The position numbers and the translations under genes are program-made. From contig JANOQJ010000088.1 in the NCBI GenBank assembly GCA_031414805.1, positions 12,882 through 76,881 of the forward strand: 64,000 nt of DNA, in the 5' to 3' direction. Shown piece by piece: positions 11,855-44,968 of the stretch. Source of the DNA: Comamonadaceae bacterium (lineage in GTDB: Bacteria > Pseudomonadota > Gammaproteobacteria > Burkholderiales > Burkholderiaceae_C). Every line of letters begins with the position of its first letter. Position 1 is the stretch's first letter. The notes beneath the pieces were generated by a model. It made no database searches and had not been told where the DNA came from. It saw nothing but the letters and a program-made list of their open reading frames with translations.

Positions 11855-13369
<1,515 letters not shown>

Positions 13370-27172: not shown

Positions 27173-27178
27173 ATGACG

Positions 27179-27772: not shown

Positions 27773-27861
27773 GATCCCTTTTTTGCGTCTCAGGATGTAG
27801 CGTGCTCCTACAGAACCTACGCCAAATCCACTTGCGCGCTTCTTGACAGCATAACCAAAAA

Positions 27862-27877
27862 CTGTATTTGTGTACAG
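27862..27877. promoter_or_regulatory. consensus LexA (SOS) box CTGT-N8-ACAG in the darTG promoter region
   Basis: aaCTGTatttgtgtACAGtt lies about 90 nt upstream of the darT ATG. On the minus strand it overlaps a candidate -35 TGTACA, and a candidate -10 TATGCT begins 9 nt past it (17-nt spacer between the hexamers). Confidence 0.55.
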
Positions 27878-27954
27878 TTGTGGTAGGTGGGCGCCACCGA
27901 CTGTCACAAGCGCGCAAACGAAACACAACCCCCTTGCTCAATCGGGTGCTAAAT

Positions 27955-30199: not shown

Positions 30200-30874
30200 T
30201 TAGCTCTGGGGTTTGAGTTGCCCGGTCAGCTTTTGCAGTTTGGCCAAGTCTTCCGGCGCAGTTTGCGGCTGCAGTAGCTCCGCGCGCCCGTGCAGCCGCC
30301 CATTGGTGTAGTTGCTGATGCTGTTGAGCATGCGGGCGGGGTGCAGATTTGCCTTGGACGCATCTTTTAGAAACACTGCCACAAAATCGTTCCAGATGTC
30401 CAGTCGTTGTCCCGTTGTGAACGACTCCAGCAACGCTGGGTTGTAGCCCGACCGGTTGGCCCAGCCAACCAAGGCCAAACCGGCGTCAGGATAAAACCGC
30501 CAACAATCAACGGGGTACTGGTGAAACTCGCCATTGGACGGCGCATTCAAATAAAAAAGCCCCTCCGGTTTGAGCACCCGCAAGACTTCGTTGAACATCA
30601 ACCAGAAAAACTCAACATGCTCAAAGCACGAACTGCTCACCACCGCATCAAAAGATGCCGACTCAAATGGCAGCTGATACGCATCTTGCAGCACGATGTC
30701 CACGCCACGGCCGGCAACGAAGTCCACACCGACACAGCGGGCAGCTCGGGGCGCTACATCACGCAAAGACCCGTTGACGTTCAGCGCACCAATGTCCAGC
30801 ACCACCCGTTCAGCCTCGTCGTTCAGATAGGTCTGGAAAAACAAGCGTCCGTTGTCGACCGCGGTTGGATGCAT
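30200..30874 (-). CDS. class I SAM-dependent methyltransferase
   Basis: VLDIGA motif I and a FDAVVSSSCFEHV / LKPEGLF pattern. Confidence 0.78.
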   Translation of the reverse strand: MHPTAVDNGRLFFQTYLNDEAERVVLDIGALNVNGSLRDVAPRAARCVGVDFVAGRGVDIVLQDAYQLPFESASFDAVVSSSCFEHVEFFWLMFNEVLRVLKPEGLFYLNAPSNGEFHQYPVDCWRFYPDAGLALVGWANRSGYNPALLESFTTGQRLDIWNDFVAVFLKDASKANLHPARMLNSISNYTNGRLHGRAELLQPQTAPEDLAKLQKLTGQLKPQS

Positions 30875-31035: not shown

Positions 31036-32418
31036 GTGTGCAAAATGTCACAGTTTTCCAAATGCTACTTTCGCCTTGGCTTGGGCGGGTTGGTAGGGCT
31101 TGTTTGTGCGGGCGTATCGGCGCAAACAGGGACTGTTGAACCGTTGGACCGACAAAGCGACGAGGCCTTCCGGCAGGTGTTGCAACAGCCTCAAAACCTC
31201 GGGCTCTGGTCTGCATATGCGCAACTCTTGGTCCAAGCTGGCAACTATGAAGGCGGTATCGCTGCTCTGGACCGCTTGCTGCTGAACCCTGACGCGAATC
31301 CATATCTGCGGGTTGAAATTGCACTGCTGTACTTCCGGTTGGGGTCATACGCACCTGCCGAGGCCATGTTGCGCACAGCGCTTCAAGACCCTCGATTGCA
31401 AGGCGACCAGCGCGCATTTGCAAGCACGTTGATGACTGAGGTGGCCAAGCGCAACCAACGTTCACAACTGAGCGGGTCGGTGGTGCTGGGCTTGCGTAGC
31501 CAGACAAACCCCACGTTTCGCACCAACAGCGCGCAGGTTTTGTCTGCCGGTGTTCTTGGCGCGTTGGCTGCTGACCAAAAACCCGATGCTGATACCGATG
31601 TGAGCCTGGGCTTGCGCGTACAACACCTGTACGACCTGGACCTGCAGAATTCGGCAACCATTTCCACCTCGCTGGGCGCCTATCTGGTGAACTACCGGTC
31701 GTCTGCTGGCAGTCAACTACAAGTCAGCCCGACCAAGCCCTATGACCTGCAAGTCGTTGACGTTTCAACAGGGCTGCAATTCAAACCGTTTCCTTCGTCG
31801 TTTTCTGAACTGACGATGCGCCCGCACATTTTGTTGTCAAACGTCGTCGCGCAAGGCCATCAGTACCTGGGAAATCATGGGGTGGGTATTGATTTCACCT
31901 GGCGGCCTGACGAGCGCACGCTGGTGGACGTCACGCTGGATCGTCAAAGGCGAAACTTTGCTAGCCGCATCGACGTGGTCAATGCGGACCTGCTGGACGG
32001 CCATTTATACGGTGTGCGCTCGCGCATCAGCCGTGAAATGGGCTCGGGACAGGTGCTCACGGGGGAATACGCGACCAAACGCAACCGGGCCAAGCGTGAG
32101 TTCTACAACTACGACTCTCATGAGTTTCGCGTGACTTACTCGATGTCGTACAAGAGCCCGATGGCTGACGCTGGTTACTGGACAACAGCCGTGTGGCTGG
32201 GCGCGCTCAATCGGTCTTACGATGCGCCCGATGCGTCTGTCAGCGCCACCGAAACGCGACGCGACCGTGAGGCGCGCATCGGCATTAGCCATCATGTGCC
32301 ACTCACCGCTTCGTGGTCGTTGCTGTTAACTGCCGAACACTCGCGTAACCAGGCAAACCTGCCTAATTTCCGTTACAAAAACACGTCGCTGTCGGGTGCC
32401 GTGGTGCGTGGCTTCTAA
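31036..32418 (+). CDS. outer-membrane protein: N-terminal TPR region plus C-terminal beta-barrel
   Basis: Signal peptide (LVGLVCAGVSAQT) and about 150 aa of TPR-like helices. These are followed by alternating beta-strand patterns ending in the C-terminal aromatic signal ...GAVVRGF. Confidence 0.65.
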   Translation: MCKMSQFSKCYFRLGLGGLVGLVCAGVSAQTGTVEPLDRQSDEAFRQVLQQPQNLGLWSAYAQLLVQAGNYEGGIAALDRLLLNPDANPYLRVEIALLYFRLGSYAPAEAMLRTALQDPRLQGDQRAFASTLMTEVAKRNQRSQLSGSVVLGLRSQTNPTFRTNSAQVLSAGVLGALAADQKPDADTDVSLGLRVQHLYDLDLQNSATISTSLGAYLVNYRSSAGSQLQVSPTKPYDLQVVDVSTGLQFKPFPSSFSELTMRPHILLSNVVAQGHQYLGNHGVGIDFTWRPDERTLVDVTLDRQRRNFASRIDVVNADLLDGHLYGVRSRISREMGSGQVLTGEYATKRNRAKREFYNYDSHEFRVTYSMSYKSPMADAGYWTTAVWLGALNRSYDAPDASVSATETRRDREARIGISHHVPLTASWSLLLTAEHSRNQANLPNFRYKNTSLSGAVVRGF

Positions 32419-32428
32419 GGAGTAACCC

Positions 32429-33232
32429 ATGAGCCCTCCCATCTCCAAAGACTGGTGGCTGGCTGCCGCCCTGACCAGCGCAGCACTGCCAGCAGCGCTG
32501 GGTCAACCGGCTGCCGGTGAGAATCGTCCTCAAAGTGCCGTTGTCACATCGGCCATAGCCGGTTCACGCACGGCGAACAACACGTCGATCTACATTGATG
32601 GCACCAGTGACCATCGGCTGATCACCGACGCCAAAACAACGATGCACGTACTGTTCTCCGATCAGTCGGCGATCACTTTGGGCCCAAATTCGGAGCTGGT
32701 CATCACGAAATACCAGTTTGATTCGCGGGCCAAAACCGGTCAGCTATTGATCAACATGAGTAAGGGGCTGCTCCGCGTCGTCGGTGGTTTTCTCAGTAAG
32801 AAAAGCGAGACCGTGGTGCGAACAAATACCGCGACCGTGGGCATACGCGGCGGCATTTCCCTGATCGAGAGCGACGACACGCAAACCAACGCCACGTTCC
32901 TTTTCGGGCAACAAATGCGGGTGTCCAGTCTGGACGACACTCAGAATCAGACGGTCACCCGGCCAGGGTTCGGCGTCACAACATCGAGCAATGGGCCATC
33001 AAGCCCGTTCCGCAGGCCGATTGGCGAGATTTCCAGCCAATTGCGGCAGCTGGATCTGACCAACGAGTCAGAACAAGGGTCAACACCTCCCACCGCCCAG
33101 TTGCCGTCTGATGATGTCAACGCGTACGCGCCAGACCGGGTCAATGCAGTTGGGGACGATCCTGACATGGGATTCCAGGCCCCGACGTTGAGAGATGTTC
33201 TGGGCAGCCAGTCGCCCGGCAATCAGTCCTGA
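32429..33232 (+). CDS. secreted FecR-domain protein with a low-complexity C-terminal tail
   Basis: Signal peptide with no lipobox Cys. FecR-like segment MHVLFSDQSAITLGPNSELVI. Starts 10 nt after the OMP gene. Confidence 0.6.
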   Translation: MSPPISKDWWLAAALTSAALPAALGQPAAGENRPQSAVVTSAIAGSRTANNTSIYIDGTSDHRLITDAKTTMHVLFSDQSAITLGPNSELVITKYQFDSRAKTGQLLINMSKGLLRVVGGFLSKKSETVVRTNTATVGIRGGISLIESDDTQTNATFLFGQQMRVSSLDDTQNQTVTRPGFGVTTSSNGPSSPFRRPIGEISSQLRQLDLTNESEQGSTPPTAQLPSDDVNAYAPDRVNAVGDDPDMGFQAPTLRDVLGSQSPGNQS

Positions 33233-33277: not shown

Positions 33278-34315
33278 ATGCGCGTCCTGTTTGTCTCCGA
33301 TTACCCGCACTTACCTGACATCAAAGGTGGGCTGCAAACCACCACGCACGATCTATGTCGCGCCATCCAGTTGATGGGGGCAGAAGCCGCCGTTTTGTGC
33401 GGCCTCAGTGAACACCGACCCGCGGATGCAGCGAGTCAGACGATCAGTGATGATTCATTGGGTTACCTGTGCATGCGCGCTGCCTCGCCCGACACGGCGC
33501 TAGCACTTGTTGCTGCAGCGTGGGGCGCTTCGATCGTCGTGGTTCAGAGCGGCATGGCCCTGTCATCCATGGTGCTGGCCAGTTTGCGCACGGGTTGCGC
33601 AACGGCCGTATACCTGCACAATGTGGAGGTACATCAACTGCGCGGCACCCTCATTCCCGACCCATCGCTGTTGTACCTGGCTAATTCGGTATTCACTGCG
33701 CAGCGGTGGCACGCCCTGTGTGGTCTGCGATGCCAGGTTGTCCCCCCGGTCATAGCTGCAGAAAACTACATGGCGGACGGTGGTGTGGGTAGGGGTGAGA
33801 AGGTTTTGTTTGTCAATCCCACGCCTGTCAAGGGTGTGGAAATCATGTTTGCGCTGGCTGCGCACTGCCCTGATGTTTCCTTTCTCGTCGTGGAAAGCTG
33901 GGGTTTGGAGCCAAACTGGCAGCGGCTGTGCCAAATGAGAGCGCGGGCCCTCGGAAATGTGCAGTGGCTTGGCGCGACGGACAACATGCAGGCTGTTTAT
34001 GCACAAGCGCGTTTGCTGCTGATGCCGTCGGTGTGGGAGGAGTCTTTTGGCCGCACAGCTGTGGAAGCCCAGCTCAACGGGATTCCCGTGCTGGCCAGTC
34101 AGCGTGGCGCGCTAGCCGACACCATTGGTGCCGGTGGCATTGCAGTGGATCCGCATGCACCTGTTCTAGCATGGGCGCAGGCCCTGCGTCACTTGCTGGC
34201 CGAGCATGCGCAGTTCAGCGCTGCAGCCCGAGCGCATGCCTTGCAATACACGGCGGCAACACCGCTTGTCGTCGCGCAGTTATTAACCCTGTTGGCAGAG
34301 CATTCCCTGCGATAG
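33278..34315 (+). CDS. glycosyltransferase family 4 (GT-B fold)
   Basis: EX7E motif PSVWEESFGRTAVEAQLNGIPVLAS. Confidence 0.8.
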   Translation: MRVLFVSDYPHLPDIKGGLQTTTHDLCRAIQLMGAEAAVLCGLSEHRPADAASQTISDDSLGYLCMRAASPDTALALVAAAWGASIVVVQSGMALSSMVLASLRTGCATAVYLHNVEVHQLRGTLIPDPSLLYLANSVFTAQRWHALCGLRCQVVPPVIAAENYMADGGVGRGEKVLFVNPTPVKGVEIMFALAAHCPDVSFLVVESWGLEPNWQRLCQMRARALGNVQWLGATDNMQAVYAQARLLLMPSVWEESFGRTAVEAQLNGIPVLASQRGALADTIGAGGIAVDPHAPVLAWAQALRHLLAEHAQFSAAARAHALQYTAATPLVVAQLLTLLAEHSLR

Positions 34316-34319
34316 GCGG

Positions 34320-37300
34320 ATGGCAACCGACACCGCCGTGCACCAGATTGCAACCGCTTGGCAGTGCTTTGCGGCCGGTAATCTCGACGATGCACTGAGC
34401 CTTGCACGCGACGCGTACGCAGCGTCTCCGATGCACCGCAAGGTATGTGCAGCGCTTGGGTTTTTTTTGATTCAGGCGGGCTTACTTGATGACGCTGCAG
34501 CGGTGTTGCAACCAGCCATTGAGAACGACCCCGAGTACGCGCCCTTGCATTGGTACAACGGCTACCTACGCTCTCGCCAAGGCGATGTTGCCGGTGCAGC
34601 ACTCGCTTTCCAGTGCGCCTGCGAGTTAGACCCAGGGCTTGATGAGGCGGCTTTCGCCCTGGCCTGGGCCTTGCACGACCTTGGGCGAACAAAAGAAGCA
34701 CTCCCGTGGGCAAGCCATGCACTGACGTTGATGCGAACGCCTGCACGTTTGATGCAGATGGGTTGGTTGCAGCAAGTTCTGGGCAATCTGGAATTGGCGG
34801 TTCAAGCTTATAGGGAAGCTATCGCGGGGTTTGACCCACAAGCCGCCGAACAGCCCCGTCTTCGCCTTCACTTGTCGCAGTGTCTCGTTCGGCTGGGGCA
34901 ATCTGCAGAGGCTGCGTTATTGCTGCGTGACGCTGTAAAACAGTGGCCAGACAACGCTGAGTTACGGACCGAAGCAGCGTGGCGTGAGCATGCGCAGGGA
35001 CACTTCCCGTATGCGCTACAGCTGGCGCGCGACTTGGTTCGGGATCACCCGCACCGGGCTGAAAGCTGGCACCTCTTGGGCGTGCTGCACCAGGACTCAG
35101 GTGACTTGAAAGCCGCCGACCAGGCCTTTCTGGAGGCCCACCAGCGTGATCTGGGCCTGACCGATGCGCTGGTGCGTCGTGCGCGGATCCAGCGGGAATT
35201 CAAGCAATTCGAGGGTGCGAAGTGGTTACTGGGCCTGGCACTGCAACACCGCGCCAACGATGACGCGGCTCAGGATCAGCTTGCCCAAATCCTGCTTGAT
35301 CTGCAAGAAACCGACGAAGCACGCCGGTTACTGCATCGACGCCTTCGCGTGCGGCCCGATAGCGCTGACTTGTGGCGTCTGCTGGCGGTGGGACAGCTGC
35401 GTAAACAGCGGCCCCAAGCTGCAGCACGTGCATTGCGCAAGGCGCTGTCACTCGAGCCAGGCAGTGTCGAGGCGCAGCGCATGCTTGGCTGGCTGAGCCT
35501 GGAGGAAGGTGAGCTGGTGCAAGCCGTCTCCATCGTGCGGCACCTGGTAGCCCGGCTTCCGCACGACACTGCGGCCCAAGTTCAGGCAGCGTTTGTTCTG
35601 TCGCGGGCGGGGCACCTCGCTGAGGCTGAGCATTGGGCACAAAAAGCCGTGGCGCAAGCGCCCGCACTGGCCGAGGCTTGGCGGGCGCTGTCGCATGTTC
35701 GCTTGCGTCAGGGGTGGCTGAGTGAGGCGGAGTTTGCTGTCCAGCAGGCTTTACAGCTCGTGCCGGGACAGCCCGACAGCCTGCGGCACCTCGGGTGGGT
35801 ACTGTTGGCGTCGGCGCGCCTTGGCGAAGCCCAACTAGCCTTCCTGCGAGCGATCGAGGCCGTGCCGGGTGACCCAGTTCCAAAACTTGAACTGGGCGAA
35901 GCCCAGCGCCGAGCCGGTCAATTCACCGTCGCATTACAGGGCGTCAATGCCTTGCTGGCAGCGCGCCCCACATGGCAGCCAGCCTTGCTGTTGCGAGCCC
36001 GGTTGATGGTGGAAGGGGGCGTTGACGGTGCCGCTGATACCTGCGCCCAGTTGTTGCGAAGTGATGTACGCAACGCGGATGCTGTGAAGGTGTGCCTGCG
36101 CCTGACGGGTCTTGGTAACCCGCGTGCCCGGCGCTTGCTGTCGATGGCGGCGCTGGATGTTCTGCGTACGGTCTGGCGAGATGCCATCGTCGAAGCAAGC
36201 CACACCCAAGGACAAGCGTATCTGGCGATGTTGATTCGGGCTGCCAGCGAAGACATGGATACGGATCCGTGGATCGCGACTGCAGCGCTGTATGCCAACG
36301 CGCTGTCACCACAGTCAACTGCTGTTGGGTTGGCCGTTCAGGCGCGCGACTGGTACCGTGGGCTGAAGGTGCGCAGCGGCCTGGCGCCTTTTGCGGCTGC
36401 GCCTTTGCATCGCAGGTCGGACGAACGCCCCCGCATTGCGTATGTAGCCAGTCAACTGCATCAGAGCCTGCTGCGTCGGGTGTTGGCTGCGCACACGGCG
36501 GATCAAGCGCAGGTTTTTCTCTACACCTGCCATCCCTTTTACGGTCTGCCGTCGCATATTCACTTGTTGCCGTTGGTGCCTGAAACGCTGGCTGAGTCCT
36601 GTGCAGCCAACCGGATTGATGTGGTGATTGATGTCGGCGGTCTGCACCCGTTCGAGGGCCAATTTGGCTTGCTGGAAGCTTATGCGCGCCGACTGGCCCC
36701 GGTGCAGTTGGGCTGGCTGGGTTGCTGGGGTAGCACTGGCGGCTTGTTTGACGGTTTGCTGGCCGACGATGCGGCAATTCCGCCGCAGCACGCGGTTGGC
36801 TATGAGGAACCGGTATTCCCGCTGCGCGGCGGTCAATGGTGTTGGGATCCGCCGTTGGCTGCGCCTGATACGCGCCCGCCCCCGTCATTGACCCATGGCG
36901 GCACCACCTACGGCGTGACGGCACGCAGCCTCAAACTGAGCGAGCCCTGCCTGGACGCATTCGCGCGTGTCGTCGCGCGCACGCCGATGTCGACGATTCG
37001 GTTCATTGGCCGCGTCGCCGACGATTGGCCCCTGCGCAGACAAGTGCTGGCTTGCATGCACGCGCACGGTGTGGGCACAGGGCGCGTGTTTTTTGATCCG
37101 TTTCGACCGCATGCGGCTTATCTGGAATGGTTTGGTCGGGTCGATGTCGTCCTGGACAGTTTTCCATTCAACGGCGGCTTGAGCCTGCTGGACCCGTTGT
37201 GGATGGGTGTGCCTGTGGTGACGCTGGCGGGAAGCTGGGCTGGTGCCCGGCAAGGGGCTTCTGTTCTGGCAGCGCTGGGGTTGACAGGATGGGTAGCGGA

Positions 37301-39518
37301 GAACGAGCAAGGGTTTTGCGACACTGCAATCGCGATCGCCAACAACCGTGGTGCCTTGTCAGCGCACCGCGCTGCATTGAGGTCACGCATCAGGGGTTCT
37401 GCCCTGTTGGATGGACGTCGCGTTGCATCGCAAATCGAGCAGATCTGTGCGCAGCTAACGCGCGCCAGCACTGCCATCGCCTTCGCGGCAGATGCGAAGA
37501 CGCGTACAAGAGCGCATGCTCAATGGGCGTTAGACGGTTGGCTGAGCCAACCCCGCTGCATCAGCTTGCCGACTCCGGCGTCGGACGCGACACCGGATCT
37601 ATCGGTTGTGGTGGTGCTTTTCAACCAGGCGGGCCTGTCACGCCGCACCCTGCAGGCTTTGGCAGACCAGCAGGGTGTGCGGTTTGAAACCATTGTTGTC
37701 GACAACGCATCAAGTGACCGCACACCGCAGTTGTTGAATCAATTGCAAGGTGCTCGCATCGTCCGCAACACCGCGAACTTGGGATTTTTGCGTGCTGCCA
37801 ACCAAGGCGCAGAGTTGGCGACGGGGCGCTATTTGGCCTTCCTGAACAGTGACGCCATCTTGCAGGAAGGCGCGTTGGCCGCCGCACTGCAGGCGATTCA
37901 GGCTGACTGCAGGATCGGCGCTTTGGGCGGGCGCGTGGTGCTGACCGACGGTGGGCTGCAGGAAGCCGGAAATGTGATCTTCTGCGACGGCAGTGCAGCA
38001 GGAATTGGGCGCGCAGAAGACCCATTTGGATATGCTGCCCGCGCCGCACGGTCAACTGACTATGTATCGGGCGTTTTTCTCCTGACGCCTGTACCGCTGT
38101 GGCGCAGGTTGGGTGGCTTCGACGAGGCATTTGCTCCTGCTTACTACGAAGACACCGATTACTGCGTGCGCGTGTGGCAAACCGGCATGCGTGTGGTCTA
38201 TGAGCCTGCTGTGTTGCTGGAGCACCTGGAGTGGGGCAGCGCCACCGGTGAAAGTGCCACGCACCTCATGCAGCACAACCGCGAGCTGTTTTGCGAACGC
38301 CACAGTGCCTGGCTGCAAGACCAACCACGGCCCGCAGCGCAGCCGCTGGATGCAGACCCTTGGCGCTCGCCAGAAGACCATCCGCGCCGTCCCCGTGTGC
38401 TGTTTGTCGACAATGAAGTGCCGCATATGTTCAAAGGCGGAGGCCTTCCCAGAGCCCGCTTGATGTTGCAGGCCCTGCGCGATTGGCCGGTAACACTGTT
38501 TCCGTTGTGGGCGCTGCACGACGACTGGCGTGCGGTGTACGCCTCGCTTCCAGGCAGCGTTGAAGTTGCGTTGGGACATGGGATGGCGGGACTCGAAGCT
38601 TTTTTGGAACGGCGGCTAGGTGTCTACGACGTATTGCTGGTCAGTCGGCCGCCCAATCTGCAGGCACTGCAACCGCTACGCACTCGCAGACCCGAGCTGT
38701 TTGCGGGCATGCGCCTGGTGTATGACGCCGAAGCGCTGTTTGCAATGCGTGACATTGCCATGGCCGAGGTACAAGGCAGACCGCTTCCGGTGGCCACTGC
38801 GCAGGCGCGTATCGACTGCGAAGTTGCCCTGGCTGCTGATGCGAGCGATGTGCTCGTCGTGTCCGACGGCGACGCTCGACATTTCCAGGCGGCGGGGCAT
38901 CGCACCCACATCCTGAGCCATGGCATTGCCGTGCGTCGCGGTGTACCCGGGTTGAGCCGTCGCAGTGGGCTGTTGTTCATCGGCGCGCTGCACCCTGGAA
39001 CACCCAACGAGGATGGGCTGCTCTGGTTCATCCGCGAGGTGCTACCGCTGCTGCGCCAGAACACGCCCATCGCACCCAAGTTGTCGGTCGTGGGCGTCTG
39101 CCTGTCCGACAAGGTGGCCGCATTCGCCGGACCTGACATTACCGTGCTGGGTCCGCAGGACTCACTGGAGCCGCATTACGACGCCGCACGCGTGTTTGTT
39201 GCACCCGTGCGTTTCGCTGGCGGTGTGCCCGCCAAAGTGATTGAAGCCGCTGCCAACGGCTTACCCACGGTGGCATCGGCGTTGTTGGTGCAGCAGTTGG
39301 GCTGGCGTGACGGGCTGGATATCGTCGGGGCCCGGGATGCCCTCACATTCGCTTCCGGCATCACACGCTTGTTGGACGATGATGTGGCATGGCAGAACCA
39401 ACAACACGCTGCCTGGCAGCAATGCGCACAGCGCTACGACCCTGAACTGTTTGGCCGCGCCTTGCGTGCCGTGCTCAATGCTACCGATGCCGGTGGATCA
39501 AAGGCTCAACGACCCTGA
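34320..39518 (+). CDS. 1732-aa multidomain protein: TPR array, GT41 (OGT/SPINDLY-like), GT2 and GT1/GT4-like domains
   Basis: The TPR array spans about nt 34320-36000. The GT41-type pattern runs from RIAYVAS to IDVVIDVGG, QLGWLG, DVVLDSFPFNGGLSLLDPLWMGVPVVTLAG (about nt 36420-37460). The GT2 part has VVVVLFNQ, VVDNASSDRT, FLNSDA and YYEDTDYC (about nt 37590-38310). The GT-B part has FVAPVRFAGGVPAKVIEAAANGLPTV (about nt 38385-39515). No TM helices were seen. Confidence 0.8.
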   Translation: MATDTAVHQIATAWQCFAAGNLDDALSLARDAYAASPMHRKVCAALGFFLIQAGLLDDAAAVLQPAIENDPEYAPLHWYNGYLRSRQGDVAGAALAFQCACELDPGLDEAAFALAWALHDLGRTKEALPWASHALTLMRTPARLMQMGWLQQVLGNLELAVQAYREAIAGFDPQAAEQPRLRLHLSQCLVRLGQSAEAALLLRDAVKQWPDNAELRTEAAWREHAQGHFPYALQLARDLVRDHPHRAESWHLLGVLHQDSGDLKAADQAFLEAHQRDLGLTDALVRRARIQREFKQFEGAKWLLGLALQHRANDDAAQDQLAQILLDLQETDEARRLLHRRLRVRPDSADLWRLLAVGQLRKQRPQAAARALRKALSLEPGSVEAQRMLGWLSLEEGELVQAVSIVRHLVARLPHDTAAQVQAAFVLSRAGHLAEAEHWAQKAVAQAPALAEAWRALSHVRLRQGWLSEAEFAVQQALQLVPGQPDSLRHLGWVLLASARLGEAQLAFLRAIEAVPGDPVPKLELGEAQRRAGQFTVALQGVNALLAARPTWQPALLLRARLMVEGGVDGAADTCAQLLRSDVRNADAVKVCLRLTGLGNPRARRLLSMAALDVLRTVWRDAIVEASHTQGQAYLAMLIRAASEDMDTDPWIATAALYANALSPQSTAVGLAVQARDWYRGLKVRSGLAPFAAAPLHRRSDERPRIAYVASQLHQSLLRRVLAAHTADQAQVFLYTCHPFYGLPSHIHLLPLVPETLAESCAANRIDVVIDVGGLHPFEGQFGLLEAYARRLAPVQLGWLGCWGSTGGLFDGLLADDAAIPPQHAVGYEEPVFPLRGGQWCWDPPLAAPDTRPPPSLTHGGTTYGVTARSLKLSEPCLDAFARVVARTPMSTIRFIGRVADDWPLRRQVLACMHAHGVGTGRVFFDPFRPHAAYLEWFGRVDVVLDSFPFNGGLSLLDPLWMGVPVVTLAGSWAGARQGASVLAALGLTGWVAENEQGFCDTAIAIANNRGALSAHRAALRSRIRGSALLDGRRVASQIEQICAQLTRASTAIAFAADAKTRTRAHAQWALDGWLSQPRCISLPTPASDATPDLSVVVVLFNQAGLSRRTLQALADQQGVRFETIVVDNASSDRTPQLLNQLQGARIVRNTANLGFLRAANQGAELATGRYLAFLNSDAILQEGALAAALQAIQADCRIGALGGRVVLTDGGLQEAGNVIFCDGSAAGIGRAEDPFGYAARAARSTDYVSGVFLLTPVPLWRRLGGFDEAFAPAYYEDTDYCVRVWQTGMRVVYEPAVLLEHLEWGSATGESATHLMQHNRELFCERHSAWLQDQPRPAAQPLDADPWRSPEDHPRRPRVLFVDNEVPHMFKGGGLPRARLMLQALRDWPVTLFPLWALHDDWRAVYASLPGSVEVALGHGMAGLEAFLERRLGVYDVLLVSRPPNLQALQPLRTRRPELFAGMRLVYDAEALFAMRDIAMAEVQGRPLPVATAQARIDCEVALAADASDVLVVSDGDARHFQAAGHRTHILSHGIAVRRGVPGLSRRSGLLFIGALHPGTPNEDGLLWFIREVLPLLRQNTPIAPKLSVVGVCLSDKVAAFAGPDITVLGPQDSLEPHYDAARVFVAPVRFAGGVPAKVIEAAANGLPTVASALLVQQLGWRDGLDIVGARDALTFASGITRLLDDDVAWQNQQHAAWQQCAQRYDPELFGRALRAVLNATDAGGSKAQRP

Positions 39519-40450
39519 ACGGGCGCTTCGCTGCTGGCGCGATGAGAGCGCGCAATCACGCAGCTGAAGTGGTGCTCCAAGCGTCCCAATCGATCCCAGT
39601 CGTCTTCCGTATCGATCAACGCCTGCAGCCAGGGCTTGGCCTCGGGCGCATGAAAGTTCTGGGCGACATCGGCCAGCAGCACATGCAGCAGTGAGCCGCC
39701 ATAAGGCCGCTGTGCCACGACCCGAAAGTGCGTTGAGAGCAGCGGCACAATTTGCGATGAATGCACCGCCTCGCTCGGGTCAATCGCCACCACCTCGGCT
39801 ACCGTGGGCGCACGGAAACCTCCCTTGACCATGCCGACTTTGGTGGTGAGCAAACGGTCAGGCAGCAGATCAGCCAGCGCTATGAGCTGCGCGATATTGG
39901 CAGGCGAATACTGGAAACGATCAGGCCCGACGTATTCGTCCAGATAAAACCAGCCTCCTGGTACGAGCAACTGCCTCAGCGCCGAATACAAGCTGCCCAG
40001 CTCTGAGCAATGGTGAACACTTGCGACGCCGATCACGGCATCGAAACTGCCGGGAAGAAAAGGGGCCTGCCCAACCGGTATGTCGTCCATGCTGGCCAGC
40101 ACGTGCTGTATTGACGCGATACCGGACGATGCCTGCGCTGCCACGGCAAGCACTTTAGGCGATAAGTCGAAAGCCACGATCTGTTTTGCCCAGCCCGTGG
40201 CATACAACTCCCGCTCCACATGGCCGGCACCGCAGCCCAGCACCAGCACGCGGCCTAACGGCAAACTGCATGCGGCTGCCAGGTGCTGGCCAAACCAGGC
40301 CAGGGGTGTCACGTCCGGATCGCCGCTGACCCGACGGTTGATCAGTCGCTGGATTTCGTCCAGATGCGCCCACTGCTGGCCATTGGCCACCCAGGTGTCG
40401 GGGTTGCCCCACGCAAGATCCAGCTTGTCCGAGAGGGTGCTCTCAGGCAT
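39506..40450 (-). CDS. class I SAM-dependent methyltransferase
   Basis: VLVLGCGAGH motif I and FDAVIGVASVHH. Start ATG at 40450 (MPESTL). Its 3' end overlaps the convergent giant gene by 13 nt. Confidence 0.75.
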   Translation of the reverse strand: MPESTLSDKLDLAWGNPDTWVANGQQWAHLDEIQRLINRRVSGDPDVTPLAWFGQHLAAACSLPLGRVLVLGCGAGHVERELYATGWAKQIVAFDLSPKVLAVAAQASSGIASIQHVLASMDDIPVGQAPFLPGSFDAVIGVASVHHCSELGSLYSALRQLLVPGGWFYLDEYVGPDRFQYSPANIAQLIALADLLPDRLLTTKVGMVKGGFRAPTVAEVVAIDPSEAVHSSQIVPLLSTHFRVVAQRPYGGSLLHVLLADVAQNFHAPEAKPWLQALIDTEDDWDRLGRLEHHFSCVIARSHRASSEAPVQGR

Positions 40451-41204
40451 CGATTGAATCTTGTCGCGCGGGGCGTTCGCAGACGACCGTGAAGAGCACC
40501 ACCTCCCGGCCACCCTCTGCGGGCTGCGGTTGGCTGTGAAATATCACCCGGGCTTCGGTAAAGCCTAACAAGCCCAAGGCAGAGATAAAAAACTGCGGCG
40601 TGAAATGCCACCAGGTGTGCACCTGCTCCACACCGCGGTGAGGAAGAAAGGCACACGCAGCCTGCTCGCCTAGCGACGCGTTGTAAACCTCAGTTACCAC
40701 GACTGTTTTGCGGGTGCGCAGTGCAACACTTTCCAGCAGATCAAACGGACGTCGGCAATGCAGGAGCACAGCAGCCAGCACGCCGATATCAAATCTGCCA
40801 ATCGCTTCAGGTATTTTGTACGGATCGACTTCAATCATGCGTACCGACGAGTTGAACTCGCGGTGTACATACCAAAACGAGTTGCGCACCCGCTCGATCT
40901 GACGGGCAAAGTCGCGCCGCCACGCGGCCAGGTCAAACCCTTCAAACGGAATCACATCCCACAGATGAGACATGGGTGGCTCAAGGCAGGTCACCGTGGC
41001 ACCCGCGTGCTCCATGTAGAACGACAAAAAGCCGCTGGCCGGACCAACCTCCAGAACCGAACGCCCCGCAAAGTCAACGTGCCCCAGGTAAGCGGCGGTT
41101 TGGGCTCGCAAATCCCATTGCCCCATCACCTCACCGCTGGGTAACGAGAAGGAGTGATAAAAGTCACAGTCTTCACGATTTGGGAAGCGCGGCTGAATAT
41201 GCAT
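40443..41204 (-). CDS. class I SAM-dependent methyltransferase (DUF1698/CmoB-like fold suspected)
   Basis: FYHSFSLPSGEV and VLEVGPASGF motif I. Overlaps the downstream methyltransferase start by 8 nt. Confidence 0.68.
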   Translation of the reverse strand: MHIQPRFPNREDCDFYHSFSLPSGEVMGQWDLRAQTAAYLGHVDFAGRSVLEVGPASGFLSFYMEHAGATVTCLEPPMSHLWDVIPFEGFDLAAWRRDFARQIERVRNSFWYVHREFNSSVRMIEVDPYKIPEAIGRFDIGVLAAVLLHCRRPFDLLESVALRTRKTVVVTEVYNASLGEQAACAFLPHRGVEQVHTWWHFTPQFFISALGLLGFTEARVIFHSQPQPAEGGREVVLFTVVCERPARQDSIDA

Positions 41205-41274
41205 GGGCTTTGAGTGTGGGGACGCGGGACGTCCATGGCAGGAATCCTACAATAGGTTTTCTGTCGGAGTACGC

Positions 41275-42099
41275 ATGGGTTTTCCACCTGGACACTATTA
41301 CTCACCCGTTGTCGATCCTGCAGATTTGCAGCGACGCGACGCGGAAATCTGGGCACCTCGATCCAGTCTGGTGGGGGTAGACATGCAGATCCCCGCGCAA
41401 CTGGAGTTACTGCAACAGCTGGGCCCTCATGTCACAGCGCTGGACTACCCGGTAGAGGCCCCGCCCGAGCCCGACCGTTACTTCTACCAAAACGGTATGT
41501 TTCCCGTGCTGGACGCAGAGTTCCTGTTCGGCGCTCTGTGCCTGTTCAAGCCCCGACGGGTCATCGAGGTCGGTTCGGGTTATTCGTCGCTGGTGATGGC
41601 AGATGCAAACCGGCGCGTTTTTGGCAGCAGCATCGACATCACGTGCATTGAGCCCTACCCGCGTGATTTTCTGGTGAACGGGGTTGCCGGCATCACACGA
41701 CTGGTGCCTTCGCGCCTGGAGACGCTCGATCCCGCGATGTTTGAGCAACTGGCGGCGGGCGACCTGCTGTTCATTGACTCCTCGCATGTTTGCAAAACCG
41801 GCAGTGACGTGAATTTCCTGTTTTTCCAGGTGCTGCCCAGACTGCAACCCGGCGTGTACGTTCACCTGCACGACATTTTTCTTCCCGACGAATACCCCAA
41901 ACCGTGGTTGCTGCAAGAGGGCCGCAGCTGGAACGAGCAATACCTGTTGCACGCCTTCCTGATGCACAACCACCACTGGCGGGTGGTCTGGATGGCGCAT
42001 TACCTGCTAACCCGTCACCCGCAGGCCATCAACTCGGTGTTTCCGCGCTGCCCGATGCTAGGCGGGGGTGGCAGCTTCTGGATGCAGCGGGTGAAGTAG
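41275..42099 (+). CDS. class I SAM-dependent methyltransferase (Methyltransf_24-like)
   Basis: PPGHYYSPV, VIEVGSGYSS and LLFIDSSH motifs. ATG 41275 inside ORF 41203..42099. Confidence 0.7.
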   Translation: MGFPPGHYYSPVVDPADLQRRDAEIWAPRSSLVGVDMQIPAQLELLQQLGPHVTALDYPVEAPPEPDRYFYQNGMFPVLDAEFLFGALCLFKPRRVIEVGSGYSSLVMADANRRVFGSSIDITCIEPYPRDFLVNGVAGITRLVPSRLETLDPAMFEQLAAGDLLFIDSSHVCKTGSDVNFLFFQVLPRLQPGVYVHLHDIFLPDEYPKPWLLQEGRSWNEQYLLHAFLMHNHHWRVVWMAHYLLTRHPQAINSVFPRCPMLGGGGSFWMQRVK

Positions 42100-42116: not shown

Positions 42117-43583
42117 TCACGCCACGCGGCAGATTTTCAGCATGTTCGTCCCGCCCGGCGCGCCCATGGGCTCGCCGCAGGTGATGGCATACACATCACC
42201 ACTGCTGACGATGCCGCGCTTTTTTAGATGGCCTTCGGCTTCCAGCAGCGCGGTGTCGCGGTCGACGCTGGTGTCCATCAGCAGCGGGCGCACGTTGCGG
42301 TACAGCGCCATTTTTCGCTGCGTGGTCACGCGCGGCGTGAGGGCGTAAATGGGCACATGAATGCGGTGGCGGCTCATCCACAAGGCGGTCGAGCCGCTGT
42401 CGGTCAGCGCCACGATGGCTTTGGCACCCAGGTGGTGGGCGGTGAACAAAGCGCCCATGGCAATCGACTGGTCGATGCGGTTGAAGGCCATGTCGGTGAA
42501 GTCGGCGTCCAGCTTCACGTCTTCGGCTTTTTCGGCTTCCAGACAGATGTTGGCCATCTCGATCACGGTTTCCAGCGGGTATTTGCCCGCAGCCGTCTCG
42601 GCGCTGAGCATGACGGCGTCGGTACCGTCCAGCACGGCGTTGGCCACGTCGCTCACCTCGGCGCGGGTGGGCACCGGGTTGGTGATCATCGACTCCATCA
42701 TTTGCGTGGCGGTGATCACCACCTTATCGCTCTCGCGGGCCATGCGGATCATGCGTTTTTGCAGCGCGGGTACCGCCGCGTTGCCCACTTCCACCGCCAG
42801 ATCACCGCGCGCCACCATGATGCCGTCGCTGGCGTCCAGAATGGCTTGCAGGTGCGGAATGGCCTCGGCGCGCTCGATTTTGGCAATCATTCCCGGCTTG
42901 TGCCGCCACTCGGCCCCGGCCACGTTGCACAGCTGACGGGCCATTTCCATGTCGGTGGCGTTTTTGGGGAAGCTCACCGCCACGTAATCAGCCTGAAAGC
43001 TCATGGCGGTTCGAATGTCTTCCATGTCTTTGGCTGTCAACGCCGGGGCGGTGAGGCCACCGCCTTGTTTGTTGATGCCTTTGTTATTCGACAACTCGCC
43101 GCCCAGTTTGACGGTGGTGTGCACCTCTTCGCCATGCACCGCGTCCACAGTGAGCACGATCAAACCGTCGTTGAGCAGCAGCAGATCGCCGGCTTTTACA
43201 TCGCGCGGCAGCTCTTTGTAGTCCAGCCCCACGCCGTTGATGTCGCCTGGCTCGGTACGCGAGGCATCCAGCACAAACTGGGCACCAGGCTCCAGCATCA
43301 CCTTGCCTTCTGAAAACTTGCCCACGCGTATTTTTGGCCCTTGCAGGTCGGCCATGATGGCCACCTCGCGCCCCGCACGGGTGGCAGCGGCGCGCACCAG
43401 AGCGGCTCGGTCAATGTGGTCTTGCGCCTTGCCATGGCTGAAGTTCAGCCGCACCACGTTCACACCGGCCTCAATGATTTTTTGAAGCAACGCGGGGTCG
43501 CTGGAGGCGGGGCCCAGGGTGGCGACGATTTTGGTGGCGCGGCGAGGGGCCGGGCTGGGGGTGCTTTTTTGGCGGTTTGGCAA
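42117..43583 (-). CDS. pyk: pyruvate kinase
   Basis: TKIVATLGPAS, NFSHG, MVARGDLAVE and ITATQMLESM-like motifs. Confidence 0.95.
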   Translation of the reverse strand: MPNRQKSTPSPAPRRATKIVATLGPASSDPALLQKIIEAGVNVVRLNFSHGKAQDHIDRAALVRAAATRAGREVAIMADLQGPKIRVGKFSEGKVMLEPGAQFVLDASRTEPGDINGVGLDYKELPRDVKAGDLLLLNDGLIVLTVDAVHGEEVHTTVKLGGELSNNKGINKQGGGLTAPALTAKDMEDIRTAMSFQADYVAVSFPKNATDMEMARQLCNVAGAEWRHKPGMIAKIERAEAIPHLQAILDASDGIMVARGDLAVEVGNAAVPALQKRMIRMARESDKVVITATQMMESMITNPVPTRAEVSDVANAVLDGTDAVMLSAETAAGKYPLETVIEMANICLEAEKAEDVKLDADFTDMAFNRIDQSIAMGALFTAHHLGAKAIVALTDSGSTALWMSRHRIHVPIYALTPRVTTQRKMALYRNVRPLLMDTSVDRDTALLEAEGHLKKRGIVSSGDVYAITCGEPMGAPGGTNMLKICRVA

Positions 43584-43656
43584 GGCTGTCTCCGTTCGGT
43601 TGAGCCTATATTCTTACCGCACGGGGTTACCAATTGGGTACAGGTTTGAATTGGTT

Positions 43657-43720
43657 GCTATTAGTTATATAGCTGGTTGAGCAGTATTTAAAAGGGCTAG
43701 AAGGCTATTTCACTCATAAA
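43657..43720 (+). repeat. structured ~60-nt repeat, pyk-pgk intergenic
   Basis: gctattagttatatagctggttgagcagtatttaaaagggctagaaggctatttcactcataaa. Confidence 0.88.
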
Positions 43721-43730
43721 CAATGCACCC

Positions 43731-44933
43731 TTAGCTGGACGAAGCAACGGCCCGTTTTTGCAAAATCTCGAACGCAGGCAGTGTTTTGCCCTCCAGCACC
43801 TCCAGAAAAGCACCGCCGCCGGTAGAGATGTAGTCCACCTCTTTTTCGATGCCGTATTTGGCAATGGCCGCCAGCGTGTCGCCGCCGCCAGCAATGCTGA
43901 AGGCGTTCGACGCGGCAATCGCGCGCGCAAGGGTCTCGGTGCCCCCGGCAAAGGCGTCGAACTCGAACACGCCCACCGGGCCGTTCCACACAATCGTGCC
44001 GGCCTTCTGCAGTTGCGTGGCCAGGCGGGCGGCGGTTTGCGGGCCGATGTCCAGAATCAAATCATCGGGCTCTACGTCGGTGGCGGCTTTGGTGGTGGCC
44101 ACCGCGTCGGCAGCAAAGGTTTTGGCTGTGACCACGTCGGTGGGAATGGGCACCTCGGCACCGCGTGCGCGCATCGCATCCATCACGGCTTTGGCGTCGC
44201 CCACCAAATCGGCTTCGGCCAGGCTCTTGCCAATGGGCAAACCAGCGGCCAGCAAGAAGGTGTTGGCAATGCCGCCGCCCACAATCAGTTGATCCACCTT
44301 GCCCGCCAGGGCTTGCAAAATCGTCAATTTGCTGGACACCTTGGAACCGCCCACGATGGCCACCAGGGGACGCCTGGGCTTGGCCAGGGCCAGCGTGATG
44401 GCATCCATCTCGGCGGCCAGTAAAGGTCCAGCACAGGCCACAGCCGCAAACTGGGCAATGCCGTAGGTGGACGCTTCGGCGCGGTGGGCGGTTCCAAAGG
44501 CATCGTGTACAAAGATGTCGCACAGCGCAGCCATTTTTTGAGCCAGCGTGGCGCTGTTTTTCTTCTCGCCCACGTTCACACGGCAGTTTTCCAGCAGCAC
44601 CAATTGGCCCGGTTCCACAACCACGCCGTCCAACCAATCAGCCCGCAGCGGCACCGGGCGGCCAAGCAGTTCCGACAGGCGATCGGCCACGGGCTGCAGC
44701 GAGTCTTGCGGCTGAAACTGACCTTCAGTGGGCCGCCCCAGGTGCGACGTGACCATGACGGCAGCGCCCGCGTCCAGCGCCATCCGGATGCAGGGCAGCG
44801 AGGCCCGAATGCGCGTGTCTTCGGTGATATTTCCCGCGTCGTCTTGCGGCACGTTCAGGTCAGCACGAATAAAAACCCGTTTGCCAGCCACGAGGCCTTG
44901 GGCACAGAGATCGGAAAAGCGGATGACGTTCAT
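43731..44933 (-). CDS. pgk: phosphoglycerate kinase
   Basis: RADLNVP, SHLGRP, GGAKVSxK-type GGSKVSSK and GGGDT motifs. ATG 44933 (MNVIRF). Confidence 0.95.
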
Positions 44934-44968
44934 GGCGGTGTGCACGGGTTAAGTGAAACGATTGAGTT

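Follow-up and report, generated by a model that had tools for sequence, protein, structure and literature searches.

A giant TPR–GT41–GT2–GT-B glycosyltransferase is encoded in a conserved operon with a FecR-domain protein and a Slam/T11SS-like outer-membrane protein

The 64,000-nucleotide stretch of DNA from a Comamonadaceae bacterium analysed here (the window) encodes a real and conserved enzyme of 1732 residues with four modules, a TPR array followed by GT41, GT2 and GT4-like GT-B glycosyltransferase domains. The gene is part of a portable operon, the invariant core of which encodes a Slam/T11SS-like barrel protein of the outer membrane (OMP), a FecR-domain protein, a separate GT4 glycosyltransferase and the TPR-GT41 enzyme. 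The fusion is not unique to this genome, as databases already list its family of approximately 65 cluster representatives under generic names. The operon, which an initial annotation of this DNA had missed, is more informative and more novel than the fusion.

Results

The gene spans positions 34320–39518 of the forward strand as one unbroken frame with an ATG start. The motifs quoted in the initial annotation, which had described a single uninterrupted ORF, are all present in its translation, where RIAYVAS is at residue 705, FNGGLS at 950, VVDNASSD at 1126, FLNSDA at 1174 and YYEDTDYC at 1275. A homologue search yielded the approximately 65 cluster representatives from assemblies in NCBI genomes, JGI, ENA and Logan. 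These are 1700–1793 residues long, share 42–73% identity with the query at 96–100% coverage, and the architecture is carried by Comamonadaceae, Methyloversatilis and related metagenomes. An alignment of 25 homologues (22 with the full architecture and three lacking GT2 motifs) stays collinear over its full length, beginning with Met1, and the start methionine is common to all 25. All three catalytic modules score above their Pfam cut-offs, and their key residues are kept in 43–44 aligned full-length homologues. AlphaFold2 packs the domains together in a confident model of residues 640–1732 (pLDDT 88.7, pTM 0.83), and a model of residues 1060–1732 reaches pLDDT 91.1 and pTM 0.90. A 1732-codon open frame with such homologues cannot arise by chance. 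The concern that a frameshift or assembly artefact had joined several genes is refuted by the full-length representatives, the collinear alignment and the packing of the model; we found nothing in support of such an artefact, and its probability is practically nil. In agreement with the initial annotation, no transmembrane segment is evident, the highest 19-residue Kyte-Doolittle mean being 1.63 within a TPR helix. The enzyme is apparently soluble and hence cytoplasmic.

The TPR array covers residues ~17–580 (positions 34368–36059, forward strand). At ~560 residues it agrees with the earlier figure of about 550, and it is matched by Pfam TPR_19 (E 5e-34), TPR_2, TPR_14 and TPR_16. We estimate roughly 16 repeats from the span and the eight TPR_19 stretches, a phmmer search with a consensus TPR being too insensitive for a count. 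Its matches in the PDB are designed TPRs and the TPR domain of hOGT, which aligns to residues 17–353. The array immediately precedes the catalytic domain, an arrangement typical of the OGT/SPY subtype.

The GT41 domain comprises both lobes at residues 673–1048 (positions 36336–37463, forward strand) and is devoid of the metazoan intervening domain. Pfam Glyco_transf_41 (PF13844) matches residues 872–1037 with 54 bits against a cut-off of 25. By phmmer, TtOGT (5djs) aligns over residues 673–1048 with E 1e-30, followed by SPINDLY (SPY; E 8e-27) and XcOGT (E 1e-23). The top 50 structural matches of the 640–1732 model in Foldseek are all GT41 protein glycosyltransferases (SPY, TtOGT, XcOGT and hOGT), including SPY 8dti at E 1.6e-25 and 5djs at E 4e-24. 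H714, the equivalent of hOGT H498, and R869 are invariant among 44 relatives. Position 872 (K842 in hOGT, K341 in TtOGT) is Lys in 11 of the 44 and Arg in 33. The window copy has Lys, aligned with the Lys of SPY and XcOGT as well as with residue 341 of 5djs, a structure of the TtOGT K341M mutant (PMC4683255). The phosphate loop H920-T921-T922 of hOGT corresponds to G953-L954-S955, with G952 and G953 invariant and L954 present in 42 of 44 sequences; the loop contacts in hOGT and TtOGT are made through backbone amides (PMC4683255). Because the H-T-T side chains are replaced and the catalytic Lys is mostly Arg, donor and chemistry may differ from those of OGT.

The GT2 domain follows at residues 1092–1308 (positions 37593–38243, forward strand). 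Glycos_transf_2 (PF00535) matches residues 1095–1210 with 81 bits against a cut-off of 23.3, and Glyco_tranf_2_3 matches residues 1092–1308 with 61 bits. Among 45 sequences, D1128 is found in 44 and D1133 in 43, and the motifs N1176-x-D1178, E1277-D1278-x-D1280 and H1302-x-E1304 are invariant. N1176-S-D1178 aligns to the D-x-D of K4CP, with the first Asp changed to Asn in all members, and the ED motif of K4CP is aligned as well. Foldseek matches this domain to ppGalNAc-T2 and K4CP. The features that define GT2 in CAZy are all present: the GT-A fold, the nucleotide-binding Asp, the DxD-type motif and the acidic motif.

The C-terminal domain, residues ~1360–1720 (positions 38397–39479, forward strand), has two predicted Rossmann lobes, modelled with a pLDDT of ~91. 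Glyco_trans_1_4 (PF13692) matches its C-lobe (residues 1551–1687, 78 bits against a cut-off of 27), and phmmer found no sequence relative of the domain in the PDB. The Foldseek matches are MshA (3c4q; E 1.5e-13, TM 0.68), PglA, HepE, BshA, PimB' and ManT, with TM scores of 0.65–0.73 for MshA, PglA, BshA, HepE and PimB'. K1639 and E1642 are invariant, and the first Glu of the E-x7-E motif is Gly. Judged by sequence and predicted structure, the domain is a GT-B fold of the GT4-like kind. The domain composition read from the translation by the initial annotation thus stands in full, and all catalytic modules appear to be intact.

What follows the GT41 domain varies within the family. Most members carry GT2 and GT-B, three (P0069–71) have the GT-B domain without GT2 motifs, and one (P0073) has no extension at all. 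The GT2-GT-B pair also occurs elsewhere, fused to methyltransferases in Belnapia and to an RgpF-like module in Phenylobacterium, where the fusion adjoins a gene with an ABC-transporter ATPase domain. This modularity fits a priming enzyme with an add-on elongation cassette. Among the matches listed in a scan of genome contigs, distant TPR-GT41 or GT2-GT4 proteins predominated over close family members.

Three genes precede the giant gene on the same strand. The OMP gene (31045–32418) encodes a protein of ~460 residues with a signal peptide, a short TPR region of roughly 110 residues and a β-barrel ending in RGF, with a terminal aromatic residue, and appears to be a distant relative of Slam/T11SS (DUF560/SlipAM). 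PF04575 is matched by four of five OMP orthologues (best E 1.2e-6), and the window protein does not match it at E<=1; this family also touches PgaA-type polysaccharide porins (PMC8406197). The next gene (32429–33232) encodes a Sec-secreted protein of 267 residues with a FecR domain at residues 64–160 (Pfam E 1.7e-9), followed by a low-complexity tail rich in G, N, P, S and T. In an alignment, AxA↓Q cleavage sites are found and the C-terminus is conserved (TLRxLLGS..NQS); the family comprises more than 120 clusters. NxS/T sequons are not enriched in the family (2.9 observed, 3.7 expected), and no barrel-type domain was detected by Pfam. The third gene (33278–34315) encodes the GT4 enzyme of 345 residues, assigned by Pfam and with 60% identical orthologues at the same position; it stops 4 nt before the ATG of the giant gene, with a GG-rich stretch in between.

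Four methyltransferase genes surround this core. A class I SAM methyltransferase (39506–40513, reverse strand; Pfam Methyltransf_11/25) has orthologues in L001, L006, L081, L004, L005 and L008, and another (30200–30874, reverse strand; assigned by Pfam), divergent from the OMP gene, has 67% identical orthologues in L001, L006 and L081. A Methyltransf_24-family enzyme (41203–42099, forward strand; E 2.5e-11) is encoded immediately after the giant gene in L081, L087 and L088. The fourth, a methyltransferase-like protein of 253 residues (40443–41204, reverse strand), has a weak match to Methyltransf_23. By tblastn, its homologue is a C-terminal fusion on the GT4 enzyme in Methyloversatilis (positions 9232–9978 of L081, within a 630-residue GT4 gene). 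A similar fusion in Variovorax is suggested by length and a faint Pfam match; the GT4 enzymes of L087 and L088 have 627 residues, with a faint Methyltransf_23 match, and 639 residues, respectively. The fusion provides a Rosetta-stone link between the two genes. In the window, the giant gene also has an esterase gene and a DarTG system nearby. The esterase is not conserved across clusters, and no hydrolase gene recurs among them.

The order OMP, FecR-like protein, GT4 and TPR-GT41 with its variable extension was found in nine loci, namely the window and eight others, two of which were reached with the FecR-like protein as the starting query. This order is kept across 38–73% sequence divergence, and one to five SAM methyltransferases are encoded close by. 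The island sits in different genomic neighbourhoods, next to fba/pyk in the window and pilSR/ispB in Methyloversatilis, and hence the genes travel together. P0073, with TPR-GT41 only, retains the core of OMP, FecR-like protein and GT4. Two relatives of the enzyme, of 1046 residues and without TPRs in an unclassified Proteobacteria MAG (L004) and of 1373 residues in Magnetospirillum (L005), have no homologues of OMP, FecR-like protein or GT4 in their available flanks, and the enzyme can hence do without these partners. Neither the island in the window nor any of six other annotated clusters contains a gene for Wzx, Wzy, a Wzm/Wzt ABC transporter, a synthase, an initiating phosphoglycosyltransferase or lipid-linked initiation. 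A description of the operon was not found in literature on GT41, GT2 and TPR, on DUF560, FecR and glycosyltransferases, or on OGT, FecR and the outer membrane, and no mention of a linkage to FecR or glycosyltransferases was found in accounts of T11SS (PMC12282271, PMC8406197).

Three known contexts were considered and set aside. An anti-phage or conflict system was suggested by a partial match to PF20706 (GT4-conflict) and the adjacent DarTG; PADLOC returned nothing for OMP, FecR-like protein, GT4 or the giant enzyme, and found only generic methyltransferase similarity. For a PEP-CTERM/XrtA system, the partial matches to the NCBIfam models PrsT and stp1 are far below cut-off (140 vs 312 and 80 vs 317, respectively), and the FecR-like protein ends in NQS without a PEP-CTERM motif. 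A flagellin or pilin island is at odds with the lack of flagellar genes in any cluster and with adjacency to pilSR being confined to Methyloversatilis.

Discussion

The N-terminal part of the enzyme is closest to OGT and SPINDLY, where TPRs also directly precede a two-lobe GT-B in a soluble, cytoplasmic protein. As in the bacterial enzymes (TtOGT 5djs, XcOGT 2jlb), the intervening domain is absent, and H714 and K872 occupy the positions of hOGT H498 and K842. The invariant R869 is shared with TtOGT, whereas hOGT has Gln (Q839), and G-L-S stands in place of the H-T-T loop of hOGT. TtOGT has three TPR repeats (PMC4683255) as opposed to ~16, and OGT and SPINDLY have neither two further transferases fused to the C-terminus nor an operon setting with envelope proteins and methyltransferases. 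Functionally, the nearest analogy is with the HMW1A/B/C and EtpABC systems, in which the genes for a cytoplasmic GT41 enzyme, a Sec-dependent protein and its dedicated barrel in the outer membrane lie together; HMW1C glycosylates the Sec-exported adhesin in the cytoplasm (PMC3983070, PMC4550697). HMW1C differs in having an all-α domain instead of TPRs and in transferring no more than mono- or di-hexoses to Asn; HMW1B is of the Omp85/TpsB type, whereas the OMP is not Omp85-like and probably has a DUF560-type barrel; and HMW1A is a large β-helical adhesin, whereas the FecR-domain protein is small and not enriched in NxS/T. The giant enzyme groups with OGT/SPY, and the likeness to HMW1C-type N-glycosylation is only an analogy. 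The OMP resembles T11SS proteins in size, signal peptide, short periplasmic TPR and barrel, and in having a Sec-dependent protein encoded immediately downstream; typical T11SS cargo ends in an 8-stranded barrel and not in a disordered tail behind a FecR domain. In FlmG-type flagellin glycosyltransferases, one particular secreted substrate is brought by a TPR domain to the GT-B fused to it in the cytoplasm, but these have a far smaller catalytic content and flagellar genes are not found near the present clusters.

Our favoured reading, to which we give an even chance, is that an OGT/SPINDLY-like protein-priming enzyme has acquired a grafted elongation cassette and assembles, in the cytoplasm, a glycan that is methylated. 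The TPR superhelix would select the acceptor polypeptide, and the GT41 domain would put on the first sugar. GT2 and GT-B of the same polypeptide, along with the GT4 from its own gene, would then extend the glycan by further sugars, and three to four of the neighbouring SAM methyltransferases would O-methylate the glycan. We infer that the acceptor is a protein, most likely the FecR-domain protein since it belongs to the invariant core of the operon. It would be glycosylated on its disordered tail before Sec export and subsequently be taken over by the OMP, much as in HMW1A/HMW1B/HMW1C. The initial annotation had proposed a single chain that would start a glycan on a substrate recognised by its TPRs and then lengthen it. 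The structural side of that proposal is borne out, and the functional side fits the module order, the known occurrence of GT41 in protein modifiers only and the existence of the GT2-GT-B pair as a separate cassette elsewhere. Other observations weigh against the model. A chain bearing an oligosaccharide would need to pass SecYEG, the FecR-like protein does not end in an 8-stranded barrel as known T11SS cargo does (PMC12282271), and the lack of sequon enrichment, the L004 and L005 relatives, the altered phosphate loop and Lys position, the lack of a PF04575 match at E<=1 for the window OMP and the overlap of that family with PgaA-type porins count in the same direction. One intriguing possibility, which we consider doubtful though not far-fetched, is an envelope glycoprotein system not described before, in which the enzyme acts as an OGT-like megasynthase that primes and processively builds a heavily O-methylated glycan on the FecR-domain protein in the cytoplasm, with Sec export followed by display or release through the Slam/T11SS-like barrel.

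The main rival, in our view unlikely, is that the product is a methylated polysaccharide or glycolipid and not a glycoprotein. The small GT4 and the three transferase domains would polymerise it at the membrane's inner face, starting from a lipid or another primer that is not a protein. The methyltransferases would modify or cap the chain, the TPRs would serve as scaffold or ruler, and the OMP with a periplasmic FecR-like protein would form an export pore similar to PgaA or BcsC. Polypeptides combining glycosyltransferases and methyltransferases are the norm in ABC-transporter-dependent O-polysaccharide assembly, and WbdA/WbdD, WbbB and K. pneumoniae O7 ORF6 are soluble multi-transferase proteins that work with methyltransferase modules (PMC11231755). 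The Belnapia and Phenylobacterium cassettes, the latter with a rhamnan-synthesis module beside the ABC ATPase gene, point the same way, as do the overlap of PF04575 with PgaA-like porins, the resemblance of the third domain to MshA, PimB' and the methylmannose-polysaccharide enzyme ManT, and the two relatives without OMP and FecR. However, the surveyed betaproteobacterial clusters are devoid of wzm/wzt, Wzx/Wzy, a membrane synthase, an initiating phosphoglycosyltransferase and a coiled-coil terminator, and the enzyme has GT41 and TPRs at its front. The barrel protein has the size of Slam rather than that of PgaA or BcsC, and P0073, lacking the elongation modules, retains the core of OMP, FecR and GT4. 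To our knowledge, every characterised GT41 member (OGT, SPY, HMW1C/NGT) modifies proteins, and we know of no non-protein acceptor.

A general role as an OGT-like regulator in the cytoplasm, with many intracellular proteins as targets and the OMP and FecR genes as functionally unrelated passengers, is distinctly improbable. The long TPR array is like the one in hOGT, an enzyme of very broad substrate range, and O-GlcNAc systems in the bacterial cytoplasm have been reported for Yersinia HmwC and TtOGT (PMC11329713, PMC4683255). The conserved order of the OMP, FecR and GT4 genes across divergent loci in different neighbourhoods argues against it; three to four extra transferase modules and four methyltransferases suggest an elaborate, specific glycan, not a reversible single-sugar switch, for which a recurrent hydrolase gene is also missing, the window esterase not being conserved. 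A cytoplasmic polymethylated storage or carrier polysaccharide, like the mycobacterial methylmannose and methylglucose polysaccharides, could account for several methyltransferases and soluble GT4-type transferases, for ManT (7qsg) being among the structural matches and for an exporter not being encoded. We regard it as very improbable, as ManT ranks only 16th among generic GT4 matches and the TPR-GT41 module and the strictly linked secreted protein and OMP would be left unexplained.

The GT41 enzymes known from bacteria are almost all single-sugar transferases of the OGT-, SPY- or HMW1C-like types. The substrates of most bacterial OGT homologues are not known; a Synechococcus Ogt homologue is reported to be required for pilin glycosylation (PMC9306852). 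The operon provides a concrete acceptor candidate, in that a GT41 domain with two fused transferases is genetically locked to one secreted protein, an outer-membrane pore, a GT4 and several methyltransferases. If the megasynthase reading is correct, no GT41 enzyme before it would have carried its own elongation modules, and no T11SS-type pore would have been found with a glycoprotein cargo whose architecture is non-canonical. The operon would also add a further kind of cargo to the barrel-tailed lipoproteins and hemophores of Slam/T11SS-like pores. A soluble enzyme that both primes and elongates could also serve cytoplasmic glycoengineering. For common environmental Betaproteobacteria, including Polaromonas, Ramlibacter, Acidovorax, Variovorax, Rhodoferax and Methyloversatilis, the operon may represent a route to a methylated protein glycan assembled in the cytoplasm.

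Results

The gene at 34320..39518 (+) is a single unbroken ORF with an ATG start (ORF listing) and encodes a 1732-aa TPR-GT41-GT2-GT4-like enzyme. All motifs quoted in the initial annotation are present in its translation (RIAYVAS at aa 705, VVDNASSD at 1126, FLNSDA at 1174 and YYEDTDYC at 1275), as is FNGGLS at aa 950. In Pfam, TPR families extend across approximately aa 17–580 (TPR_19 E 5e-34, eight stretches), followed by Glyco_transf_41 at aa 872–1037 (54 bits, cut-off 25), Glycos_transf_2 and Glyco_tranf_2_3 within aa 1092–1308 (81 and 61 bits), and Glyco_trans_1_4 at aa 1551–1687 (78 bits). No NCBIfam model reached its cut-off, and the enzyme therefore has no applicable curated protein name. 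It looks soluble, as its most hydrophobic 19-residue window scores only 1.63 and lies within a TPR helix, in agreement with the earlier remark that TM segments are lacking.

The initial annotation had considered that a sequencing frameshift might have joined several genes. Searching 5.8 billion clustered proteins retrieved approximately 65 cluster representatives of 1700–1793 aa with the same Pfam set (96–100% query coverage, 42–73% identity), and their alignment is collinear from Met1 through the C-terminus, which rules out a frameshift or fusion artefact and leaves a single gene. Representatives with a named source come from, among others, Polaromonas sp. A23, Ramlibacter, Acidovorax sp. sic0104, Rhodoferax saidenbachensis and Methyloversatilis thermotolerans, and public databases already list the family, with annotations no more specific than ‘tetratricopeptide repeat protein’, ‘glycosyltransferase’ or ‘predicted O-linked GlcNAc transferase (SPINDLY family)/GT2’. 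Best matches and nearby housekeeping genes (LptD, SurA and SecDF among them) place the source of the window most likely in Comamonadaceae/Burkholderiales.

Searching the PDB with phmmer aligned aa 673–1048 with both catalytic lobes of Thermobaculum terrenum OGT (TtOGT; 5djs, E 1e-30), aa 757–1041 with Arabidopsis SPINDLY (SPY; E 8e-27) and aa 765–1027 with Xanthomonas XcOGT (E 1e-23). An AlphaFold2 model of aa 640–1732 (45 sequences; mean pLDDT 88.7, pTM 0.83) has only GT41 enzymes among its 50 best Foldseek matches in the PDB; SPY with GDP-fucose (8dti, E 1.6e-25) and TtOGT (E 4e-24) head the list. H714, the counterpart of the OGT N-lobe histidine, and R869, which matches an Arg in TtOGT, are invariant in 44 aligned relatives, and position 872 is always basic (K in 11, R in 33), so that the GT41 domain looks catalytically competent. 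At the position of K872, SPY and XcOGT also have a lysine, and 5djs has its residue 341, which is mutated in that entry (K341M); K341 of TtOGT is equivalent to hOGT K842 (PMC4683255). G953-L954-S955 stands in place of the H920-T921-T922 loop of hOGT, a replacement that is uninformative because the loop contacts in OGT are made through backbone amides (PMC4683255). Judged by sequence, predicted fold and key residues, the enzyme is a GT41 member; the donor sugar of this domain is not readable from sequence.

Besides GT41, the chain has a bona fide GT2 domain and a GT-B domain of GT4-like type. Among 45 sequences, D1128 and D1133 of the GT2 domain are near-invariant, and N1176-x-D1178, E1277-D1278-x-D1280 and H1302-x-E1304 are invariant. 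In an alignment with the chondroitin polymerase K4CP, N1176-S-D1178 falls on the D-x-D motifs and E1277-D1278 on the ED motif; Asn replaces the first Asp of D-x-D throughout the family. For the third module, phmmer found no sequence relative in the PDB. A second AlphaFold2 model (aa 1060–1732; pLDDT 91.1, pTM 0.90) places a GT-A domain, matching ppGalNAc-T2 and K4CP in Foldseek, before two Rossmann lobes with retaining GT4 enzymes as best structural matches (MshA 3c4q, E 1.5e-13, TM 0.68); PglA, HepE, BshA, PimB', sucrose-phosphate synthase and the methylmannose-polysaccharide mannosyltransferase ManT also match. K1639 and E1642 are invariant in this module. Pfam, the GT41 alignments and the two predicted models agree with the initial annotation and confirm, at the level of modelled structure, that a single chain combines three distinct transferase folds.

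The operon context had not been seen initially. The gene lies in an island bounded by fba (27955–29019, −) and pyk/pgk (42117–44945, −). The first of three co-directional upstream genes (31045–32418, +) encodes a predicted 457-aa outer-membrane protein (OMP) that carries a signal peptide (…GVSA|QT) and a short TPR region and whose beta-rich C-terminal part ends …VVRGF; a terminal aromatic residue is typical of outer-membrane barrels. The second (32429–33232, +) encodes a 267-aa FecR-domain protein whose signal peptide is of the AxA|Q type, whose tail is rich in G/N/P/S/T and whose C-terminus is conserved, and the third (33278–34315, +) a 345-aa GT4. The GT4 stop is 4 nt ahead of the ATG of the giant gene, which suggests translational coupling. 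Methyltransferase or methyltransferase-like genes lie at 30200–30874, 39506–40513, 40443–41204 and 41203–42099. In tblastn against other loci, the esterase at 29085–29969 is not conserved with the island.

The order OMP, FecR-like, GT4, TPR-GT41 recurs in Methyloversatilis thermotolerans (L081), by tblastn in Betaproteobacteria HGW-16 (L001) and Methyloversatilis MC4-4 (L006), in three metagenomic or MAG loci (L083, L084, L085), and in Variovorax sp. N23 (L087) and a 5-Mb genome (L088), the last two reached independently from FecR-like homologues. Because the surrounding genes differ between loci (fba and pyk/pgk in the window, pilSR and ispB in L081), the cluster behaves as a portable cassette whose genes move together. 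SlipAM/DUF560 (PF04575), to which the Slam/type 11 secretion pores belong, is matched by four of five OMP orthologues (best E 1.2e-6); the copy in the window has no PF04575 match. The window gene 40443–41204 is separate from GT4 and on the opposite strand, and other lineages have a fusion of approximately 630 aa: the C-terminal half of the Methyloversatilis GT4 (L081 8095–9987) is homologous to it by tblastn, the 627-aa Variovorax GT4 (L087 6241–8124) has a faint methyltransferase match, and the L088 GT4 (10921–12840) has 639 aa. The fusion is a functional link between the methyltransferase-like protein and GT4.

The part C-terminal of GT41 varies among relatives and the OMP-FecR-GT4 core is constant. 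Most relatives have GT2 and GT-B after GT41; P0069, P0070 (L084) and P0071 (1638–1667 aa) keep TPR, GT41 and GT-B around a middle segment with no GT2 motif, and P0073 (1064 aa, L085) has no module after GT41. The GT2-GT-B pair also occurs without TPR-GT41, in Asaia behind an N-terminal region with no domain match (988 aa in total), in Belnapia fused to two methyltransferase domains (L008 8198–12901; 1567 aa), and in Phenylobacterium fused to an RgpF-like rhamnan-synthesis module (L010 8861–11926), adjoining a gene for a 742-aa protein with an ABC-transporter ATPase domain. This is the pattern expected if a protein-priming TPR-GT41 enzyme had acquired a portable glycan-elongation cassette.

Several loci carry additional genes without Pfam match: one of 335 aa between GT4 and the enzyme gene in L084, and others of 450–550 aa beside the core (L083 10052–12840, L085 5127–6500, L087 2044–3699), which could encode alternative acceptors or accessory factors. 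The signal-peptide region of the FecR-like family is unusually conserved (M[TS]PPISKDWW[LI]AAAL). Among the 120 relatives listed (P0121–P0240), the ten most frequent C-terminal tripeptides, covering 105 proteins, all end in Ser, and NQS ends 61. This C-terminal peptide might dock into the TPR domain of the OMP or of the enzyme.

Elsewhere, the window holds ordinary betaproteobacterial chromosome backbone (LptD, SurA, SecD/SecF, DprA, Fmt), a hybrid histidine kinase (23893–25707, +), an 820-aa DUF1631 protein (50989–53451, −), a 1214-aa protein with TPP-binding, POR and DUF6537 domains (56837–60481, −) and PhoX (60615–63110, +). Directly left of fba, a DarT/DarG toxin-antitoxin pair (ssDNA ADP-ribosyltransferase and macrodomain antitoxin; 26054–27928, −; PADLOC DarG E 4e-90, DarT E 1.4e-38) lies in a low-GC patch (0.53 vs about 0.61).

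Discussion

To our knowledge, proteins are the acceptors of every characterised GT41 enzyme, and TPR arrays of the OGT type bind the polypeptide to be modified. For these reasons the TPR array may recruit a polypeptide to which the GT41 domain would attach the first sugar; module order and modularity suggest that the glycan would be lengthened by the GT2 and GT4-like domains together with the separately encoded GT4, and that the neighbouring methyltransferases would methylate it. The front end would work like OGT/SPY and the back end like multidomain O-antigen polymerases. We give even chances to protein glycosylation as the overall reading. That a bacterial TPR-GT41 can act on an exported protein has a precedent in a cyanobacterial Ogt homologue required for pilin glycosylation (PMC9306852). 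The HMW1 system pairs a Sec-dependent adhesin with an outer-membrane translocator of its own, encoded next to it, and the adhesin is glycosylated in the cytoplasm by a GT41 enzyme (PMC3983070, PMC4550697). The operon logic is similar here, but without an NGT-type enzyme and without TpsB. Strict gene linkage and this analogy make the FecR-like protein a candidate acceptor, if a doubtful one.

The operon logic also resembles a Slam with adjacent cargo, but the candidate cargo has no C-terminal 8-stranded barrel, the feature shared by known T11SS cargo (PMC12282271). The T11SS literature raises glycosylated cargo only as a possibility. NxS/T sequons are not enriched in the FecR-like family (2.9 observed vs 3.7 expected), and an oligosaccharide-bearing chain would still need to pass through SecYEG. 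PF04575 touches PgaA-type polysaccharide porins too (PMC8406197), and the sequenced flanks of a 1046-aa relative without TPR in an unclassified Proteobacteria MAG (L004) and of a 1373-aa relative in Magnetospirillum (L005) contain no homologue of OMP, FecR or GT4. Because of these weak points, the main rival is a methylated polysaccharide or glycolipid pathway with its exporter encoded elsewhere, which we consider rather unlikely. Genes for Wzx/Wzy, Wzm/Wzt, a membrane synthase or an initiating phosphoglycosyltransferase are absent from all clusters with OMP-FecR-GT4-TPR-GT41.

Our literature search found no paper on this operon or this TPR-GT41-GT2-GT4-like fusion. The architecture by itself is a moderately unusual fusion; with the enzyme gene conserved alongside those for a secreted protein and a Slam-like pore, the question of the targets of bacterial OGT homologues becomes directly testable.
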